In this document: positions 771 through 45,757 of the stretch, piece after piece | Numbering within the stretch: position 1 is the first letter of the stretch | Layout: each line of letters opens with the position of its first letter | IMG/VR virus record: IMGVR_UViG_3300011008_000010 | Location: 1-64,000 of that record | DNA from: a virus | Lineage: Duplodnaviria; Caudoviricetes | Length of the DNA: 64,000 nucleotides | Direction: 5' to 3' (one strand) | Made by a program: the position numbers and the translations under genes | The notes under the pieces: model-generated | The model's database searches: none | Seen by the model: only the letters and a program-made list of their open reading frames with translations | What the model was told of the DNA's origin: nothing

Positions 771-1946
771 TCATTTTTCCACCCAATCATCCACAACCTT
801 CCCCGGAAATCTTAAATCAAAATACTTTTCGGCAGTTTCCGGATAATTGTTTTCAAAATCTGTCAATGCACGCATAGCCGTACACAACTTTCCTTCAGTC
901 TTAATCCTGGCTTGATTCGTAAGGCAGTATTTTCTAAACGTCATTTTCTTAAAGAAGTTTGGTTGATTACCCCATCTTGCCATAGTTATATACATTTCTC
1001 TATATTTAGAGCGCTTCCAGGGGGTATCATTTTTGTCTTGATACCGCATAATATATGGTAAGCACCTATACTGCATCAATAAGGCAATCCGCTTAAAGGC
1101 ATTTTCTATGTCAACATGATCTGTACTCTCAAATGCAACAAGAACGTAGAACTTCATACATGTTACACTAGTATACTTCCTTATCAGGTGGAGTTTTTCA
1201 TGTATTAAGTCATAGTCTGAAATGTTATCAAATGCGAAAGTGTAATCGCCATCATAATTCGCATTAAAAAGCATTTTGCATTTTTCATCCGTTAGCAGCC
1301 TCTCATCCATCCCTTGTTTAAATTTAAATGGCTTTTGTGTTGCTATAAGCTCTTCAATAATGTTTTTCCACTGTCCACAACCAAGGACATTATCGTCTAA
1401 TAAGCATATTTTCTTTCGAGTTGGATCATAAAATTCCTCTAAAGGACTATGTCTAAATACGTGATCATACTTCTGATTTACACAAAATGCGCATTTCCTA
1501 AAACAGCCTCTTGTCATAAACCCAATACTGTAATCTGTATACTCCTTAAATCGGTTCATATAGCTGGCCTTATTAAATTCAGATCCTTCTGCTATTGCTA
1601 TCTGCTCAGCTTTCTTTACCTCTTCTTCTATCCAGTCATCATACAGATGGTAATCAGGCATATGATGTTCTATCTCATCCGGAAGGTTTGGAGCTTTATC
1701 AAAATAAAATCCGGTACCGCCTATATGCACTTTTTCTGTTTCGTGTAGTCCTTCTGGTACCGGAGTATCAGTAAAAACCTTCGATATAAAAACTTGATCA
1801 TATTCATCAAATTTTTCATAATCAAGTTTTAGTTCAACAGTTGCACCTCTTTCCTTCCAGTATGCGGATAGTTTCTCGCAGACAAGGTTAGGAAAGCGAT
1901 GTTTTTGGCGACCAATAAGATCGGCATCGACAATTGCAATTTTCAT
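771..1946 (-). CDS. radical SAM protein
   Basis: TRGCFRKCAFC (CxxxCxxC), LLDDN, N-terminal FPNL..KLS..GGTG segment typical of phage-associated radical SAM proteins. Confidence 0.9.
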   Translation of the reverse strand: MKIAIVDADLIGRQKHRFPNLVCEKLSAYWKERGATVELKLDYEKFDEYDQVFISKVFTDTPVPEGLHETEKVHIGGTGFYFDKAPNLPDEIEHHMPDYHLYDDWIEEEVKKAEQIAIAEGSEFNKASYMNRFKEYTDYSIGFMTRGCFRKCAFCVNQKYDHVFRHSPLEEFYDPTRKKICLLDDNVLGCGQWKNIIEELIATQKPFKFKQGMDERLLTDEKCKMLFNANYDGDYTFAFDNISDYDLIHEKLHLIRKYTSVTCMKFYVLVAFESTDHVDIENAFKRIALLMQYRCLPYIMRYQDKNDTPWKRSKYREMYITMARWGNQPNFFKKMTFRKYCLTNQARIKTEGKLCTAMRALTDFENNYPETAEKYFDLRFPGKVVDDWVEK

Positions 1947-3172: not shown

Positions 3173-3695
3173 GATGCCCTCTACCGCCCCCCCCCCGCTG
3201 TGTCAAGGGCTTCCGTGATTCCGTCTCGGCTAAACACCTGCCGATTTCTTCTGTACCCGTCTTTGTGTCCGATGATTGAAACACGATTTTCTCTGTCTGC
3301 TGTTTCGACAGGAAATACTTCTGATCTACCGCATCCTCTAAGATGTCCGATAATGAATATTCTCTCTCGGTTTTGCGGGACGTAATCGGCAGAATTGAGA
3401 ACCTGCCACTCCGCATCGTACCCGCCTTTGTCCATTTCAACGAGAAGTCGGGCGAAATCCCATCCTCTATTAACACTAAGCAGATTTTTAACATTCTCAA
3501 TGAATAGGGTACGGGGTCTTTCTTCTTCTGGGAGTTGTCCCAAAAGGTACATAATTCTGAAAAACAGGCTTGAACGCTTTCCCGTGAATCCACATTGTTT
3601 TCCTGCAACACTAAGGTCCTGGCATGGGAAGCCGAAGCACCAACAGTCTGCCCGTGGGATATCTCCGGCATAAACTCGTCTAATGTCATCTGCAT
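3123..3695 (-). CDS. alternative-frame overlapping polypeptide inside the MTase (beta-chain-like)
   Basis: ~190 codons open inside the MTase; GGAG RBS 6 nt before MQMTLDEF; contains WTKAGTMRSG and YSLSDILEDAVDQKYFLS. Confidence 0.65.
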   Translation of the reverse strand: MQMTLDEFMPEISHGQTVGASASHARTLVLQENNVDSRESVQACFSELCTFWDNSQKKKDPVPYSLRMLKICLVLIEDGISPDFSLKWTKAGTMRSGRFSILPITSRKTEREYSLSDILEDAVDQKYFLSKQQTEKIVFQSSDTKTGTEEIGRCLAETESRKPLTQRGGGGRGHHVAIHVGCDRQGGETE

Positions 3696-3918
3696 ACCAT
3701 TCTCCATTCCTGTATTCCTCTTTCGTGATTTCCTTCTGCCTTTGTTTTAGGTCAAGAGAGGCAAGGCATTCCCGCTGCTGATCCGTTAAAAGGTGCATGG
3801 AAACATAACTCATATAGGCAAACTTATCAAACTCGCAGAATCCTACGCACTTATGCCCTGCCAATTCCATGCCCCGCCGAAATCCTCCAATCCCGGCAAA
3901 CCAGTCGATAAATGTCAT
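3181..3918 (-). CDS. C5 DNA (cytosine-5) methyltransferase, catalytic N-terminal part
   Basis: FAGIGG (I), GFPCQDLS (IV), ENVKNL (VI), QNRERIF (VIII); ends at TAG just after a G10 tract. Confidence 0.95.
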   Translation of the reverse strand: MTFIDWFAGIGGFRRGMELAGHKCVGFCEFDKFAYMSYVSMHLLTDQQRECLASLDLKQRQKEITKEEYRNGEWYADDIRRVYAGDIPRADCWCFGFPCQDLSVAGKQCGFTGKRSSLFFRIMYLLGQLPEEERPRTLFIENVKNLLSVNRGWDFARLLVEMDKGGYDAEWQVLNSADYVPQNRERIFIIGHLRGCGRSEVFPVETADRENRVSIIGHKDGYRRNRQVFSRDGITEALDTAGGGR

Positions 3919-4032
3919 GATCTTTCCCTCTCTACGCTGTCAAAATACTCCCTGTACCGTTCCTCTTTCCACAATCCTTCTGGCGGTTCACCGCCTAAAA
4001 GTGCGGTTTTCCAGTATTCGTACCGAAGCATC
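3915..4032 (-). CDS. small hypothetical protein
   Basis: MLRYEYWK... fills the gap, ATGA-coupled to the MTase. Confidence 0.35.
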
Positions 4033-8688: not shown

Positions 8689-9171
8689 CTACCACAGATC
8701 CTTTGACGTTTCTGATATATACCTGGAAGCCTTCGGTTTATATTTAGCGCCTATATGTTTCTCATCATAAATTATCTTCTTTGTTATTTCTTCAGTGTGT
8801 TTTTTTGTCTTCCACGCATCATAAACCATATTAAGTTTTGATGCTGCAATCGCACACAAATAAGCAACTGCATTTGATTCTGTTTTAAAATCTTTGTTTT
8901 CAGAAAACTTCAAATAACCATCCTTAGAAAGAACAATGGCTCCGTATACCACTTCTAAAGGATACTCGCCATTGTCTTTTGTTTTATTGTTTGCTATTAC
9001 CTTTCCATTCTGTAATCCCTTTAACCTAAGAACCGCTTGTTTTTGCAATCTTTGATTGTTATCATAGTGGAGAATGTCCTTTTCAACAAATAAAAATATT
9101 TTTCTCCATAATGCTTTTTCCTCTTCGGAATACTTTCTTTTTGGCGGTTGTTTTAGTTTGCTTTGAGACAT
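8689..9171 (-). CDS. hypothetical replication protein (yorH position, possible helicase loader)
   Basis: 160 aa, directly upstream of the helicase. Confidence 0.65.
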   Translation of the reverse strand: MSQSKLKQPPKRKYSEEEKALWRKIFLFVEKDILHYDNNQRLQKQAVLRLKGLQNGKVIANNKTKDNGEYPLEVVYGAIVLSKDGYLKFSENKDFKTESNAVAYLCAIAASKLNMVYDAWKTKKHTEEITKKIIYDEKHIGAKYKPKASRYISETSKDLW

Positions 9172-9563
9172 CAGTTTTTCTCTTCGCCGGGTACCGATTC
9201 GACATCATCAATGTCCATACCAATATCCTCATCAAATTCTTTGTCACTTAATCCATGATCGTTCAAACTGTCACGGATTACTTTTGCCTTTTCGACAATA
9301 TCCTCATATGTCCGTTCTTTTGGTTTTTTGTCTTCTTCATTTCCTTTTTCGTCCTCAATCTCCTGATCGTCCTCGATTCCATAATCCGGATCAAAAATGC
9401 CACACCCTTTATGTCTGATTTTATTTTTTCGTTCTTTGTTTACCGTAAAGCGCGAGATACCACAATAAAAGGAATCTCCGTGCGCCTCATCATAATAAGA
9501 GAATACGCAATCAGCACAATTGTTTGGCATTTTTTCAATCACATCAGGTTGAATACAAATCAT
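9171..9563 (-). CDS. hypothetical protein
   Basis: 130 aa, MPxxCxxCxF motif, acidic tail. Confidence 0.7.
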   Translation of the reverse strand: MICIQPDVIEKMPNNCADCVFSYYDEAHGDSFYCGISRFTVNKERKNKIRHKGCGIFDPDYGIEDDQEIEDEKGNEEDKKPKERTYEDIVEKAKVIRDSLNDHGLSDKEFDEDIGMDIDDVESVPGEEKN

Positions 9564-34096: not shown

Positions 34097-34336
34097 TTAA
34101 GCCGCCATCAGTTCGCTTGCCTTAGCAAACACATCGGCGACTAAGCAAACCTCGGCAATGCCGTTAAAGCTGTCGGCACAGTACGCTGTCTTATAAGGCA
34201 TGTAAACCTTTGTGGCGTCTGTGGTCTGGTCGATCAGGATGTCCTGAAGAGTGTAAGTACGGTATCTTGCGATAACCTCTTTAAGCGTGTCGGACAGTGC
34301 CTGTCGTCCAATGGTGTAAAGTACTGAGTAATTCAT
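34097..34336 (-). CDS. early hypothetical protein
   Basis: GAAAGGAG RBS. Confidence 0.75.
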   Translation of the reverse strand: MNYSVLYTIGRQALSDTLKEVIARYRTYTLQDILIDQTTDATKVYMPYKTAYCADSFNGIAEVCLVADVFAKASELMAA

Positions 34337-34385
34337 GGTGTGCTCCTTTCGTTGTAAGTGTAATGTGTGTGGTTGACAGTTGCTT

Positions 34386-35279
34386 TAAAGGACGCTGTAG
34401 GTCATAAAGGACGTTGTAGGTTATGCACTACTTCATGGTCGAACCAACGTCCTTGTAAGGGAGGAAGATTAAGCACATGGTTTACAAGCGATCTCAACCG
34501 ACCCGCCATTATCCTTTAATAACGAACCGACCGAGCAGACCTTGTAAGGAAATGGCTGTATAGCTTTGAAACCATACAGCCAGAGTTACTATATTCAGTT
34601 GTACTTTATTCAGTTTTTACAATATTTAGTTTTTTCTTAAAGCCAACAAGTCTCTCGTTTTAGCTTTCACGATAATGGACATGTCAACGCTTGACTTGTA
34701 AGTAGCGTAAGGGAATCCACCTTACATTACCGTGGGGGATTGCTCGCAGAATGTTTTTAAGCGCCCTGTCGCCATTTTATCTGCGGCGATTCACACGAGT
34801 TTCGATTCAGGCCAACCCATAAGGTAATTTGTTTAAGAGTTGATGAAACTCTCTTATGGATTACTTTAAGTGTGTTTCCCCGGATTAAAGGAATTAGACC
34901 TTAGCTGAAAGATAAGATACAAACGAGACGCGATTATATAATAACCGGTACTACCCTTTAATCGTGGTCAATCAGACATTAAACACACTGATCTCTCCCT
35001 TTCAATTCTTTCCCCTTAAAAAGCGCATAGTATTTTAGAGGTTTGCTTAAAGATCGCTGAAAACTCAACTTTTCGCGGTCTAATGTAGCACGGGACAGTT
35101 TAAACAGAAATAAACTGTTTTTGTCCAAAGTGTCGGACTTTATAAAAAGATCCTCTAAAATCTAACCTTCTCCCACTTAATAAAGGACGGGCCTTTTACA
35201 CCCTGGTCTTTATAACGATAAAGTCTACGAACGACTTATATCTGATTGTAAAGTAAAGTACACTACGAACGTGCCTTTA
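34386..35279 (-). ncRNA. candidate large structured non-coding RNA
   Basis: No ORF >=60 aa over ~1 kb in a gene-dense phage; many nested 7-10 bp helices (see findings). Confidence 0.55.
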
Positions 35280-35356
35280 TTGCATATCACGGAATTGAAC
35301 CGCAATTAAAAGAGGCTCTCTTATGAGAGCCCCTTTTAAGCAACCTTGCTATGCAA
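35280..35356 (-). ncRNA. tRNA-like element (acceptor stem plus T arm, long hairpin in place of the anticodon arm); hairpin could also act as a terminator
   Basis: TTGCATA/TATGCAA stem, TTGCGG-TTCAATT-CCGTGA T arm, 15-bp hairpin TTAAAAGGGGCTCTC/GAGAGCCTCTTTTAA. Confidence 0.6.
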
Positions 35357-35366
35357 ATCGACGAGA

Positions 35367-35792
35367 TTAGATATTGACAATGCCTTTATATTCTTTCGGC
35401 ATGGTCTTGTGGATAACGTTTCCGCTGTTCTCAAGAGCTTTAATGCCTTCAGGCTTGACGATCGCCCAGCAACCATGACCTTTAAACCAGTACGCCTTAT
35501 AGTTCTTCTTGAGAATCTCACCGACGGTCTTATCATAACCGCCGCCGTTTAAAGCCACAAGAATGATTTTCTCACCGGTTTTAGTATGCTTTGCATACCA
35601 GGCAGAAACGCTTTTTTTCGTCGTTTTCGGCGTTGCAATCGGCGTTTCCGCCATTTGCTGCTGCTTCAAAGCCGTTTCGGCTTTTTCGCGGTTTAAGGCT
35701 TCGATCATGGTATTAAAAGCCTTGAGTTCAGCAGGGGTTAAGTCCATGAAACGATCGACGAGTTGAGAGAGAGTGATTTCCTGTTTTTTCAT
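35367..35792 (-). CDS. first gene of the leftward early transcript, hypothetical
   Basis: 141 aa, GAAAGGAAGGT RBS. Confidence 0.8.
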   Translation of the reverse strand: MKKQEITLSQLVDRFMDLTPAELKAFNTMIEALNREKAETALKQQQMAETPIATPKTTKKSVSAWYAKHTKTGEKIILVALNGGGYDKTVGEILKKNYKAYWFKGHGCWAIVKPEGIKALENSGNVIHKTMPKEYKGIVNI

Positions 35793-35896
35793 AATGCCAC
35801 CTTCCTTTCGTTGAGTGTATGAGTGTTAGAAGACCGCGCATCCGTATCGCGCTTGCTTCTCCGTATCCGCGTCCGGCGTCGCCACCGACCACTCAT

Positions 35897-35925
35897 AGCA
35901 TGGCATCGATCACAAATCCTGTCAA
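35897..35925 (-). promoter_or_regulatory. sigmaA promoter of the early region
   Basis: TTGACA-17 nt-(TG)CATGCT. Confidence 0.65.
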
Positions 35926-36557
35926 ATTCGAAAGTTTGTTTGGGACGCAAAAATTGCCCGCAAAGCCGCACGGGTACTACAAAAAAATTTTTTTCGATTG
36001 TGACAAATAACAATTTATTTCAGTCGATCGGGGGAAAAATTTTCCATGCCGGGGGGGTACGGAAAGCCCATAAAATCAACATTTTTTTGTCGGAGGCCCA
36101 ATCACTCACCTTCATACACAGACCAAAAAATACCAATCCAGTCACTCCCAAAATAATATACAAAACAAATGTTCTTTCTCCAAAAAACCTCCTCTCCCAC
36201 ACTCACATCCATCTAATAACTCATATAAAAAAAACAGAAACTATGTTCGATAAAATATCTTCCTGGAACCTCTCTTTTTCAAAACCTCAAACTGCGAAAT
36301 ATGTTCAAAATTACTACGATTTTTTCCAACCCCTTTTAACTATCATAAAATATTCATCAGTGACACATTTTTTATCGTTTTATGATTATCTCACAACTGT
36401 ATTAATTCCATCTTAACAATCCCAATAATTATATCCCGGCACATCCTAACGCTAATCCTTCCCTCACATTTAAACCATATGTTCGATATTTATAAAATTA
36501 TAAAGTTCTAAAAATACTCTAAACACCATTCCACCCGATTTTTTAACAATTATCTGC

Positions 36558-42019: not shown

Positions 42020-42090
42020 TGCGTGGTAGCTCAGTTGGCTAGAGAGCACGATATATCGTGAGGTCGCAGGTTCGAGTCCTGCCCATGCTA
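42020..42090 (+). tRNA. tRNA-like gene with collapsed anticodon loop (pseudo-tRNA)
   Basis: TAGCTCAGTTGG D arm, GCAGG-TTCGAGT-CCTGC T arm, but anticodon arm is CACGA-TATA-TCGTG. Confidence 0.7.
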
Positions 42091-42852: not shown

Positions 42853-43027
42853 CATATTTCAAAAAATATGGAAGCACAGCTTCTTCTTTTGCACATTGAG
42901 AACAAGGAAAAGGTTTCGAGCGAAAGCTTCCTGCACAATCAAGCTTATGCCTGTTGATGTGAGGAGGCTTATTGGTCGTAAGTGGAATAAAAGGATTAAC
43001 AGTCTGTCGTATAAAGAGGTATTGACA

Positions 43028-45757
43028 ATGGCTCTGTCAACACAGTATTTCTCCTATTCCGTATCGACCGGAGACTTCGACACGCCGGAAGAACGGGAAT
43101 TATACAACAAGATGATGTTGAATAAAAGGAGAAATAAGGGATTAGCGGATATAAAGGACCGGATGATCAAAGAAGGTCGTGCGGTACGAGGATTTAAAGG
43201 GAATAAAAAAGACAAAGAAGAACTTAAGCGGGCTGTCATTGAAAAGTACAAGGCAGTTGCAAAAGAACGAAGTTTTTCAAAACGCGCCGCAGAATACAAA
43301 GAAATGTATTCAGAGGCGTTAAAGGCGTGTACAGAAGTAAGATCTCTTTCTCCCGGTTCAATCTGTGAATATAATCAAATTTCTTTGTTTGAATCAATTC
43401 TTTCAAAGACTCTTGGGATTAAACCTAATGAAACAACAATGGATCTGATTACGGTTCAGGTATATTTCTATACAACAATGGAACAACTTATCAAGAGAGG
43501 TTTTACTTTAAACGGTGAAAAATACCAATACTATACTTCTTCTGCTGCTGCGATTCGTTTGAAAAAGGGTATGTTTATTAAGTCTTCAACTTATGAAAAA
43601 CATAAAATGGCTTTGACTTGTGGCATGCCGGTTGAAGAGATTAATAAACGTGCCCAGATTAACGCCACAAAGTTTTTGGCTTATACTGCTCTTCCGTCTT
43701 CTGCCGTTGATATCTGGCCTACGGATTTTGTTGAAGCTTTAAGGATGGGAATGGGTTCTTTTAATATCCGCAGATGCATTGTTGTTCCGGATTATGAAGT
43801 AACGGTCAGAGGCGTTGTCGATCATCTTGACAACGAAACTTATGCAATCACCCGTCAGGAGATGGATGTTGCTTTTGACAGAGTGGACGGATGTGGGATG
43901 GTTTTGCCCAGAGTGAGTGATAAGAATTTTGTTTTTCGTGCGCCTTGGATGAAGGGGCTTCTTTGCAGTTTTGATTTTTTGAGGTTCATTGAAGAGAACT
44001 ACGCTTCTCCGAAGATTGTTGATTATTGGGGAAAAGAATGGGACGTCATAGAGGATGATATTGAAGTTATCTTTACGGACTCTATGCTGAAGCTTGCAAA
44101 ATGTTACAAGAGCTGGGACGAGTATTGTACAAATTTTGAAAAGTATGGTTGTCTTGCCGGTATTGCAAATATGGAAGGTCCGAAACCGTTAAAGGCCAGA
44201 TATAATTATCAGTATCTGCAATCTCTTACTGATATGACAGATGATGAGATTCGGATTTTGACCATGCAGTCTAATACGACGCTTAGAGAGTTGTCGAGCG
44301 ATAAAGAAACGATGCTTCGTGTTCTTGGTGCGACAGATTATAATATGAACCGGACTCCTTGGCAGAACGCGTTGGCTTTGTATCCGGAACTGTTAAAGGA
44401 TGAATATGCAAAGAAAAAATTGAGAGACGCGAAAAACAGTTTGGTTAAGAAATTTAAAAGCGCAAAGCTTGAATCCAGAGGGTTTTTTACTTTTGTCATT
44501 CCGGATCTTTATGCGTTTTGCGAACATTTGTTCCTTGGAGAAGAAACGCCAAAGGGATTATTACATGCGAACCAATGTTCGTGTAGGCTGCTCTCTCACT
44601 CTGACGAATTGGTTGCTATGAGAAGTCCTGCTCTATATAGAGAACAGGTATTGTTAAAAAATATTTACAGAGACGATCCGAGAATACAGGATTATTTTGA
44701 TACGGACGCAATCTATATTTCCAATCATGATATGTTGGCCAGAGTGGTTCAATTAGATTATGATGGAGACAGGCTTATGGTAACTGCCGATCCAACATTT
44801 AGAGAGGTCGTAAAGCGCAATTGGAGAAACGATGATGTGGTTCCTCTGTATTTTGATTTAAAACACGCAGAGGGCGTCGAATTGAATTCTGAAAACATAT
44901 GGATTGCTTTACAGAGGGCATTTCAGGCAAATAAGATTGGAGTTTATGCGAATCTTATTACTAAAGCATGGAACAGCGCAGAGGATTGGCTTAGTATGTC
45001 TTCTGAAGACAGGCAATTAATTTTAGACGTGGTAAAGTATTTGACACTTGAAGAAAATATCAATATTGACAGTGCAAAGTCCGGATATAATATGACCAGA
45101 ACAAGCGAGGTTGATAAAAAAATAAAAGACTGTATCGGAGGCAAGAAGGTTCCGTATTTCTTTAAATATGCAAAAGACAGGGCTGACGAACAGGTTGAGG
45201 AGTGGAATGCCAGCGTTATCAATCGTATCGGATCTGCAATCATTAACCCTCGTATTAAGTTTACGGCTGAAAATCTTGGGAAATTAGATTGGCGTGTGTT
45301 GGTGAGTAATCCGAACATACGTGTAGAAAATGATGTGGTGAACGTATATTCGAATGCGGTTAGAGGGTCTCATATCAGACTAACTCCACCCAAGTCCGAT
45401 TATGGTAACGCCGAAACTAATTATTATGCTGCTATCAAAAATTTACAGGACGAGATCAAAGAAAGTCTTCCGGAATATTCCTGGCAGGACATATGCGATA
45501 TGGTATTCAAGTATTTATATTACATTCGCAAGAATGTTGTTCGAAAAGATTTTGCCTGGGCTGTATTTGGGGACGTAATCGTAGAAAACATCCGAAAGAA
45601 AGTGCCGAAGGAGTCTGTACAGTGCGAGGTTTGCGGTACAAGATTTATTCCACAGACGGCGAGCTCTCATCAAAAGTATTGCGAGCATTGTGCAAGGGAT
45701 GTTCGACGCGCAAAAAACAGGGAATACAAGAGAAAAATGAGGGCTAAACTTTTGTAG
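43028..45757 (+). CDS. yonO: YonO-like single-subunit DNA-dependent RNA polymerase
   Basis: DGCG, FRAPWMKG, NYQYLQSL, RSP, catalytic LDYDGD, C-terminal CEVC..CEHC zinc ribbon; GAGGT RBS at 43028. Confidence 0.9.
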   Translation: MALSTQYFSYSVSTGDFDTPEERELYNKMMLNKRRNKGLADIKDRMIKEGRAVRGFKGNKKDKEELKRAVIEKYKAVAKERSFSKRAAEYKEMYSEALKACTEVRSLSPGSICEYNQISLFESILSKTLGIKPNETTMDLITVQVYFYTTMEQLIKRGFTLNGEKYQYYTSSAAAIRLKKGMFIKSSTYEKHKMALTCGMPVEEINKRAQINATKFLAYTALPSSAVDIWPTDFVEALRMGMGSFNIRRCIVVPDYEVTVRGVVDHLDNETYAITRQEMDVAFDRVDGCGMVLPRVSDKNFVFRAPWMKGLLCSFDFLRFIEENYASPKIVDYWGKEWDVIEDDIEVIFTDSMLKLAKCYKSWDEYCTNFEKYGCLAGIANMEGPKPLKARYNYQYLQSLTDMTDDEIRILTMQSNTTLRELSSDKETMLRVLGATDYNMNRTPWQNALALYPELLKDEYAKKKLRDAKNSLVKKFKSAKLESRGFFTFVIPDLYAFCEHLFLGEETPKGLLHANQCSCRLLSHSDELVAMRSPALYREQVLLKNIYRDDPRIQDYFDTDAIYISNHDMLARVVQLDYDGDRLMVTADPTFREVVKRNWRNDDVVPLYFDLKHAEGVELNSENIWIALQRAFQANKIGVYANLITKAWNSAEDWLSMSSEDRQLILDVVKYLTLEENINIDSAKSGYNMTRTSEVDKKIKDCIGGKKVPYFFKYAKDRADEQVEEWNASVINRIGSAIINPRIKFTAENLGKLDWRVLVSNPNIRVENDVVNVYSNAVRGSHIRLTPPKSDYGNAETNYYAAIKNLQDEIKESLPEYSWQDICDMVFKYLYYIRKNVVRKDFAWAVFGDVIVENIRKKVPKESVQCEVCGTRFIPQTASSHQKYCEHCARDVRRAKNREYKRKMRAKLL

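Follow-up and report, generated by a model that had tools for sequence, protein, structure and literature searches.

The minus-strand RNA of positions 35356-35280 in the window analysed here (64,000 nucleotides, the first 64 kb of the 137,795-bp IMG/VR virus record of an SPbeta-like phage) folds into a tRNA-shaped structure in which a terminator-like hairpin occupies the place of the anticodon arm. Its minimum-energy fold, calculated with ViennaRNA, is a closed four-way junction of -34.5 kcal/mol that leaves no junction base unpaired (z -6.1 against dinucleotide shuffles), and this junction is also kept when the element is folded within a 291-nt context. The fold is real and unusual. The interpretation favoured here, which is tentative and has somewhat less than an even chance of being right, is that the element acts as a partial terminator, and that the RNA produced by read-through completes a mimic of the top half of a tRNA, which would then be cut by RNase P and RNase Z. 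The parts of the element and the gene preceding it are as follows.

35350-35356, minus strand: 5' strand of the acceptor-like stem (UUGCAUA), from sequence and fold
35340-35349, minus strand: D-like mini-hairpin with a GCA/UGC stem and the loop AGGU, from the fold
35306-35339, minus strand: central hairpin in the position of the anticodon arm, from sequence and fold energy
35287-35305, minus strand: T-like arm with a 6-bp stem and the 7-nt loop UUCAAUU, from fold and motif
35280-35286, minus strand: 3' strand of the acceptor-like stem (UAUGCAA), from sequence and fold
35367-35792, minus strand: upstream gene, an orphan 141-aa ORF with a strong RBS

The coordinates and letters of 35280-35356 agree with those given in an earlier sequence-only reading of this DNA, and the fold also bears out its description of a T arm with a canonical loop on which an acceptor-like stem of 7 bp is stacked, a terminator-like hairpin taking the place of the anticodon arm. 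The D-like arm, on the other hand, had been drawn as GCAA gg TTGC, where the 2-nt loop cannot close; the actual stem is GCA/UGC, or a 4-bp AGCA/UGCU in the other isomer of the junction, and the loop AGGU holds the GG. Both isomers are related by the migration of the junction by one step, with arms of 7+3+15+6 or 6+4+14+7 pairs, which makes 31 pairs either way. The outer helix UUGCAUA/UAUGCAA consists of 7 bp, all of them Watson-Crick, and is preceded by a U at 35357, where a U.U apposition blocks any further extension. In the T-like arm, the exact GGTTCRANYCC motif, the closing G-C pair, and the equivalents of U54 and A58 are found together with two G.U pairs, a third one being located in the central hairpin. 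The 3' acceptor strand abuts the T stem without a spacer and is followed by UAAAGG, with no CCA. Acceptor and T stems stack into 13 bp in the simplest register; a count of 12 bp requires the outermost U-A to be assigned to position -1 and discriminator 73. The central hairpin combines a GC-rich 9-bp core with an A4/U4 extension, reaching 14-15 bp under the loop AUAA. A covariance model built from this single sequence gives 120.3 bits on the minus strand versus 31.5 bits on the plus strand, and the minus strand is the better RNA strand because the three G.U pairs become A-C mismatches on the other one.

The phage encodes a YonO-type single-subunit RNA polymerase (42896-45757, plus strand), which shares 37-39% identity with the one of SPbeta, a Bacillus phage. 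Hundreds of relatives of this polymerase exist, and since those with a name come from Bacillales, the host probably belongs to this group as well. Left of approximately 36 kb the genes lie on the minus strand, and the base skew switches sign near 36-38 kb. The 141-aa ORF is the first well-supported leftward gene; its stop codon, TAA, lies at 35369-35367, and the element starts 10 nt later. The encoded protein belongs to no Pfam or PHROG family, finds no match except itself among 5.8 billion proteins, and yielded no lead in a protein-atlas comparison. The element is followed by approximately 0.95 kb without a long ORF, and then by genes for proteins of 79 and 327 aa. Word-indexed and exhaustive searches with these two proteins and the 141-aa one returned only the queries themselves or low-complexity matches, and no homologue of the flanking orphans emerged from tblastn or protein-pattern scans.

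Upstream of the 141-aa gene, the region 35974-35890 (minus strand) holds a terminator-like hairpin (35974-35957) followed by a TTGACA at 35926, with a GC-rich leader of about 100 nt between this hexamer and the gene. The leftward early unit probably begins here, whereas gene callers put a 197-aa plus-strand ORF at 35823-36416, an arrangement that leaves the divergent genes only 30 bp apart. On the other side of the element, the ORF-free stretch (34337-35279, minus strand) carries a 13-bp hairpin at 34582-34553 and has no Rfam match at E values up to 10. Immediately 3' of the element there is a direct repeat (35271-35255 and 35233-35217, minus strand), where CGTTCGTAG, a gap of 0-2 nt, and ACTTTA occur twice, 38 nt apart. 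Beyond these two copies, CGTTCGTAG has no further occurrence in the 138-kb genome, and the repeat may represent an operator or a promoter element for a factor other than sigma-A. A plus-strand promoter-like site at 35195-35224 (TTTACA-18-TAAAGT, 9/12 matches) is directed into the element, and an antisense RNA of approximately 110 nt starting from it is conceivable, since A and U tracts flank the central hairpin on either side.

Judged by its sequence, the central hairpin together with its U-tract would serve the first leftward early gene as a Rho-independent terminator. It is GC-rich, lies on the coding strand 28 nt past the stop codon, and is directly followed by the U-tract UUUUAAUU (35311-35304). 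In a dedicated scan for terminator-like hairpins, no other strong one turned up on the minus strand across the leftward genes. A consensus terminator scanner did not list it, a silence attributed to the absorption of the U-tract by the A4/U4 pairs. Termination at this site is probably leaky, because the minus strand from the element to the next genes showed no sigma-A-like promoter in a consensus scan; if these genes are driven from the TTGACA near 35926, read-through would be needed for their expression.

According to the favoured interpretation, this leaky terminator would be nested within a tRNA-shaped fold, whose outer half, the 7-bp helix stacked on the T arm, would copy the top half of a tRNA. 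Since the U-tract precedes both the T arm and the 3' acceptor strand, the mimic would be completed by read-through transcripts alone. RNase P is predicted to cut at 35356/35355, or just 5' of 35356, and RNase Z after 35280 or 35279. These cuts would separate the message of the first gene from the downstream RNA, which would acquire a defined 5' end, possibly to the benefit of the phage. An earlier proposal that the element toggles with termination finds little in the fold, as no alternative antiterminator pairing was seen by eye between the 5' flank and the 5' arm of the terminator; any coupling to termination would be kinetic only, the 3' half of the mimic lying past the U-tract.

What RNase P and RNase Z need at the sequence level is present in the element, namely a U at position -1, no CCA, and an A/U-rich trailer. 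The RNase Z of B. subtilis acts on precursors that lack CCA, which RNase P is able to cut (PMC1874595), and CCA blocks RNase Z (PMC7479834). The ruler of RNase P measures 12 bp from the elbow (PMC4919913), which is the length of the stack in the -1/73 register. In plant mitochondria, t-elements have been found with the motif GGTTCRANYCC, and their ends coincide with mRNA ends (PMC1920247); the phage element likewise holds this motif in a non-canonical cloverleaf with an acceptor-like stem. Against the processing interpretation, an efficient terminator would keep most transcripts from forming the mimic, the element is a singleton, its stack measures 13 bp in the simplest register, and tRNA detectors are silent on it.

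In a more ambitious form, which is rather unlikely, the phage would have built its terminator into the tRNA top-half mimic in such a way that the termination decision is read out by the tRNA-processing enzymes. Terminated RNA would keep a protective 3' hairpin, and RNase P and RNase Z would release from the remaining transcripts a delayed-early RNA with a processed 5' end that includes the ORF-free stretch of approximately 0.9 kb. If true, this model would describe a bacterial or phage counterpart of the organellar t-elements, coupled to termination.

The main competitor is an ordinary intrinsic terminator, without any role for a tRNA-processing enzyme, where the complementarity of the flanks and the T-loop-like heptamer are either fortuitous or form a clamp that stabilises the RNA ends. 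This explanation is possible, although the weight given to it stays well below an even chance, and the evidence bearing on it comes from two measures that disagree: the fold energy of the flanks is unremarkable, whereas their specific arrangement is rare. Regarding the energy, most of the stability of the fold, and most of the overall z-score, comes from the central hairpin, which alone accounts for -21.8 kcal/mol. The flanks add -12.7 kcal/mol, compared with -8.3 +/- 2.8 for shuffled flanks, which equal or beat the real ones in 158 out of 2000 cases (8%); when 16 other terminator-like hairpins of the phage are considered as well, this contribution ranks second and is not an outlier. The GGTTCRANYCC motif is expected 0.7 times per genome by chance and occurs three times, in the element, in a tRNA-like gene at 42069, and at 111900 (plus strand). 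The last of them, the 11-mer GGTTCAATTCC, also present in the element, has no stem at that site, as the ordinary-terminator explanation would allow.

Regarding the arrangement, a strict definition demands, besides the motif, a stem of 5 bp or more and a perfect 7-bp helix that directly abuts it and pairs with a segment 30-110 nt upstream. Once the motif is given, this arrangement has a probability of 7.9e-4, which results in approximately 5.5e-4 expected sites per 138-kb genome and speaks against a fortuitous origin. A laxer definition raises the expectation to 0.12 chance sites per genome, which is more favourable to an ordinary terminator, and among the approximately 250,000 windows scanned, tens of chance cases of even the strict arrangement are expected. 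The element is the only such site in this genome. Two hairpins take up its interior exactly and leave no junction base unpaired, which lowers the chance expectation further, and the outer helix ends exactly at 7 bp; both features speak against an ordinary terminator. The silence of the tRNA detectors, the singleton status of the element, and a plain terminator at the analogous place in a relative (L004, described below) fit that explanation well, in contrast to the several other real non-decoding tRNA-like elements in the lineage. Taken together, the tRNA-like half of the fold is probably not accidental.

The first of these other elements is a tRNA-like gene of the window itself, at 42020-42090 (plus strand), to which the Rfam tRNA model gives 44.9 bits. 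A palindrome of 5 bp closing a 4-nt loop forms the central arm, which leaves the gene without a usable anticodon. A homologue is found at 8788-8865 (plus strand) in L004, a locus whose YonO relative shares 47% identity with the polymerase of the phage. In this homologue, the D and T arms are nearly letter-identical, the central arm differs (it has a 9-nt loop), and the acceptor stem shows three compensatory changes. The conservation of the arms together with the compensatory changes indicates, at the level of sequence comparison, that the non-decoding tRNA-shaped RNA of 42020-42090 is under selection. Near 9205-9240, L004 holds in addition a T arm accompanied by a short acceptor-like helix. 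A more distant locus, L045 (YonO relative at 41% identity), carries two acceptor/T-arm elements, at approximately 3600-3641 and 3880-3940 (plus strand), both between the YonO terminator (3487-3532) and a ClpP-like gene, and ARAGORN is silent on both. The first consists of a helix with a 9-nt linker replacing the D and anticodon arms, and the second is a three-way junction with a local match of 20.9 bits to the tRNA-like domain of the tmRNA model. The presence of two GGTTCRANYCC motifs per 13-19 kb locus in L004 and L045 is far above the 0.7 expected per 138 kb; SPbeta, phi3T, and Perkons have none.

These lineage elements provide indirect support for the element at 35280-35356. They have in common with it a canonical T arm on an acceptor-like helix, the lack of a usable anticodon loop, and an intergenic location. 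However, they have no sequence homology to it, and none of them encloses a terminator itself, the two of L045 following one. A scan for tRNA top halves detected no further element of this type in the phage genome. L004 is also the nearest relative with the region available, and there the first leftward gene is followed by a plain terminator without tRNA-like flanks. After that terminator, approximately 700 nt without a called gene (1008-1735, minus strand) include a GC-rich structured stretch that itself ends in a terminator; no sequence similarity was seen between this region and 34337-35279 of the window. Closer YonO relatives (85% and 74% identity), from the samples ERZ27252073 and SRR33322320, are found only on contigs of 3.7 and 7.2 kb, which stop short of the region.

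A tRNA gene proper can be discarded for the element: an anticodon loop is missing, ARAGORN passes over the element in a default run, and the Rfam tRNA model is silent (RF00005 has no match to it at the gathering score, and nothing on 34200-35500 at E values up to 10). At a very relaxed threshold, ARAGORN makes 220 calls, most of them spurious. The anticodon arm with its 7-nt loop is replaced by the hairpin of 14-15 bp with the 4-nt loop AUAA. What the element does have of a tRNA is a UUCRANN T loop, closed by a G-C pair and stacked directly on the 7-bp acceptor stem; an L-shaped fold is not assured, because the 8-9 linker and the variable loop are absent and the D arm is minimal. A tmRNA was also rejected, since ARAGORN finds none and position 3 is a G-C pair instead of G3.U70.

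Relatives of the element were sought at several levels. Megablast and blastn searches with the region and the element against 50,697 phage records yielded only chance matches to the hairpin, an exact-pattern scan of IMG/VR found no relative, and the covariance model of the element detected no paralogue within the 138 kb of the phage. Apart from the record itself, the region was encountered only in a near-identical 5.5-kb JGI contig, which has no change across the element. A structured pattern with the acceptor letters and the T loop fixed and the interior free, applied to IMG/VR and metagenome contigs, gave 24 matches, most of which are real tRNAs (Leu, Gly, Tyr, Met, Gln), the rest being unrelated and not called by ARAGORN. 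The tRNAs matched, from phage and metagenome contigs, carry the acceptor letters UGCAUA.../...UAUGCA plus A73, so these letters are natural for tRNAs. One of the unrelated sequences, recovered in four loci (at 3417-3497 in L020, and also in L022, L031, and L035), is a tRNA-like element without an anticodon loop from a 251-kb viral contig; it has a 7-bp acceptor, a T arm, and three short tetraloop hairpins (one of them GAGA), and ARAGORN is silent on it as well.

The acceptor letters shared with real tRNAs would be compatible with a relic of a phage tRNA or tRNA-like gene, in which the D and anticodon regions were remodelled into a terminator and the tRNA-like half was inherited without a function. 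Some of those tRNAs can be aligned end to end with the single-sequence model at 14-20 bits, and the phage has tRNA genes elsewhere in its genome, as identified by ARAGORN. Such an origin is nevertheless improbable: decay is unlikely to leave 31 mismatch-free pairs and a perfectly closed junction, the D arm and the 8-9 linker would have gone entirely, and no similarity to tRNAs extends beyond the parts fixed in the search pattern.

It is similarly doubtful that the element serves, instead of as a processing signal, as a ligand or decoy for a protein or RNA that binds the elbow and acceptor of tRNAs, such as a host defence nuclease directed at tRNAs, the CCA-adding enzyme, or a phage protein. 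A copy of the tRNA top half from which the decoding part is absent would suit this role, as would a second anticodon-less tRNA-like gene in the same phage. However, decoying of anticodon nucleases, included in the earlier suggestion of a decoy for tRNA-targeting defences, is unlikely because the anticodon loop is missing; moreover, the element does not stand alone as a gene, a separate promoter for it was not seen, the internal terminator would truncate the RNA, and no partner gene was identified among neighbours that are all orphans.

A function on the other strand or at the DNA level, either as a bidirectional terminator of the short antisense RNA from 35195-35224 or as an attP with a tRNA 3' fragment, is most improbable despite the A and U tracts on both sides of the hairpin, the 9/12 promoter-like site, and the two tyrosine recombinases of the phage (14844-15311 and approximately 118 kb), because the plus strand pays for its three A-C mismatches with a score of 31.5 instead of 120.3 bits, the recombinase genes are approximately 20 and 83 kb away from the element, no resolvase was found in the phage, the 5' acceptor strand would be superfluous for an att site, and no bacterial tRNA gene has the same T arm and acceptor 3' segment (a search with both in one genome per bacterial species gave eight matches, about the number estimated by chance, of which one is a tRNA with a different stem).

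If the processing interpretation is true, host tRNA-maturation enzymes would punctuate the early transcripts of Firmicutes phages, transcription termination and RNA processing would be compactly coupled, and the presence of several non-decoding tRNA-shaped elements in the lineage of YonO phages would have a reason. If it is not, the element stands as a caution that a T-loop heptamer next to a terminator can mimic a tRNA convincingly. So far, the punctuation of transcripts by tRNA-maturation enzymes is known chiefly from organelles, along with a few long non-coding RNAs of eukaryotes.

Among known systems, the plant mitochondrial t-elements resemble the phage element in their GGTTCRANYCC T arm, acceptor-like stem, and non-canonical cloverleaf, as well as in their intergenic or UTR location by a protein gene and in the proposed way of making mRNA ends, with RNase P acting on the 5' side and RNase Z on the 3' side (PMC1920247). 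Contrary to them, the phage element belongs to a phage of a Gram-positive host and not to an organelle, is not homologous, and holds what is predicted to be an intrinsic terminator in the place of the anticodon arm, so that only read-through RNA would form it.

The mascRNA of MALAT1 and its MEN-beta counterpart of NEAT1 are tRNA-like folds at 3' ends, whose use by RNase P and RNase Z sets the ends of the neighbouring RNA. They share with the phage element a tRNA-like fold embedded in a longer transcript. However, both are eukaryotic nuclear RNAs, their anticodon-arm-like stem has no terminator function, and their processing has been shown experimentally.

Like canonical tRNAs (RF00005), the element has a four-arm topology with an acceptor helix of 7 bp and a T arm whose loop fits the consensus, although it lacks the 7-nt anticodon loop, the 8-9 linker, and the variable loop, and has a 4-nt D loop and a 13-bp stack. 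The tRNA-like domain of tmRNA is similar in that the acceptor and T arm are kept, the D arm is reduced, and a long helix replaces the anticodon arm; unlike tmRNA, the element has no G3.U70, CCA, tag reading frame, or pseudoknots. Were it to function as proposed, the element would be a variant of the tRNA-like processing signals, which are of an already known kind.
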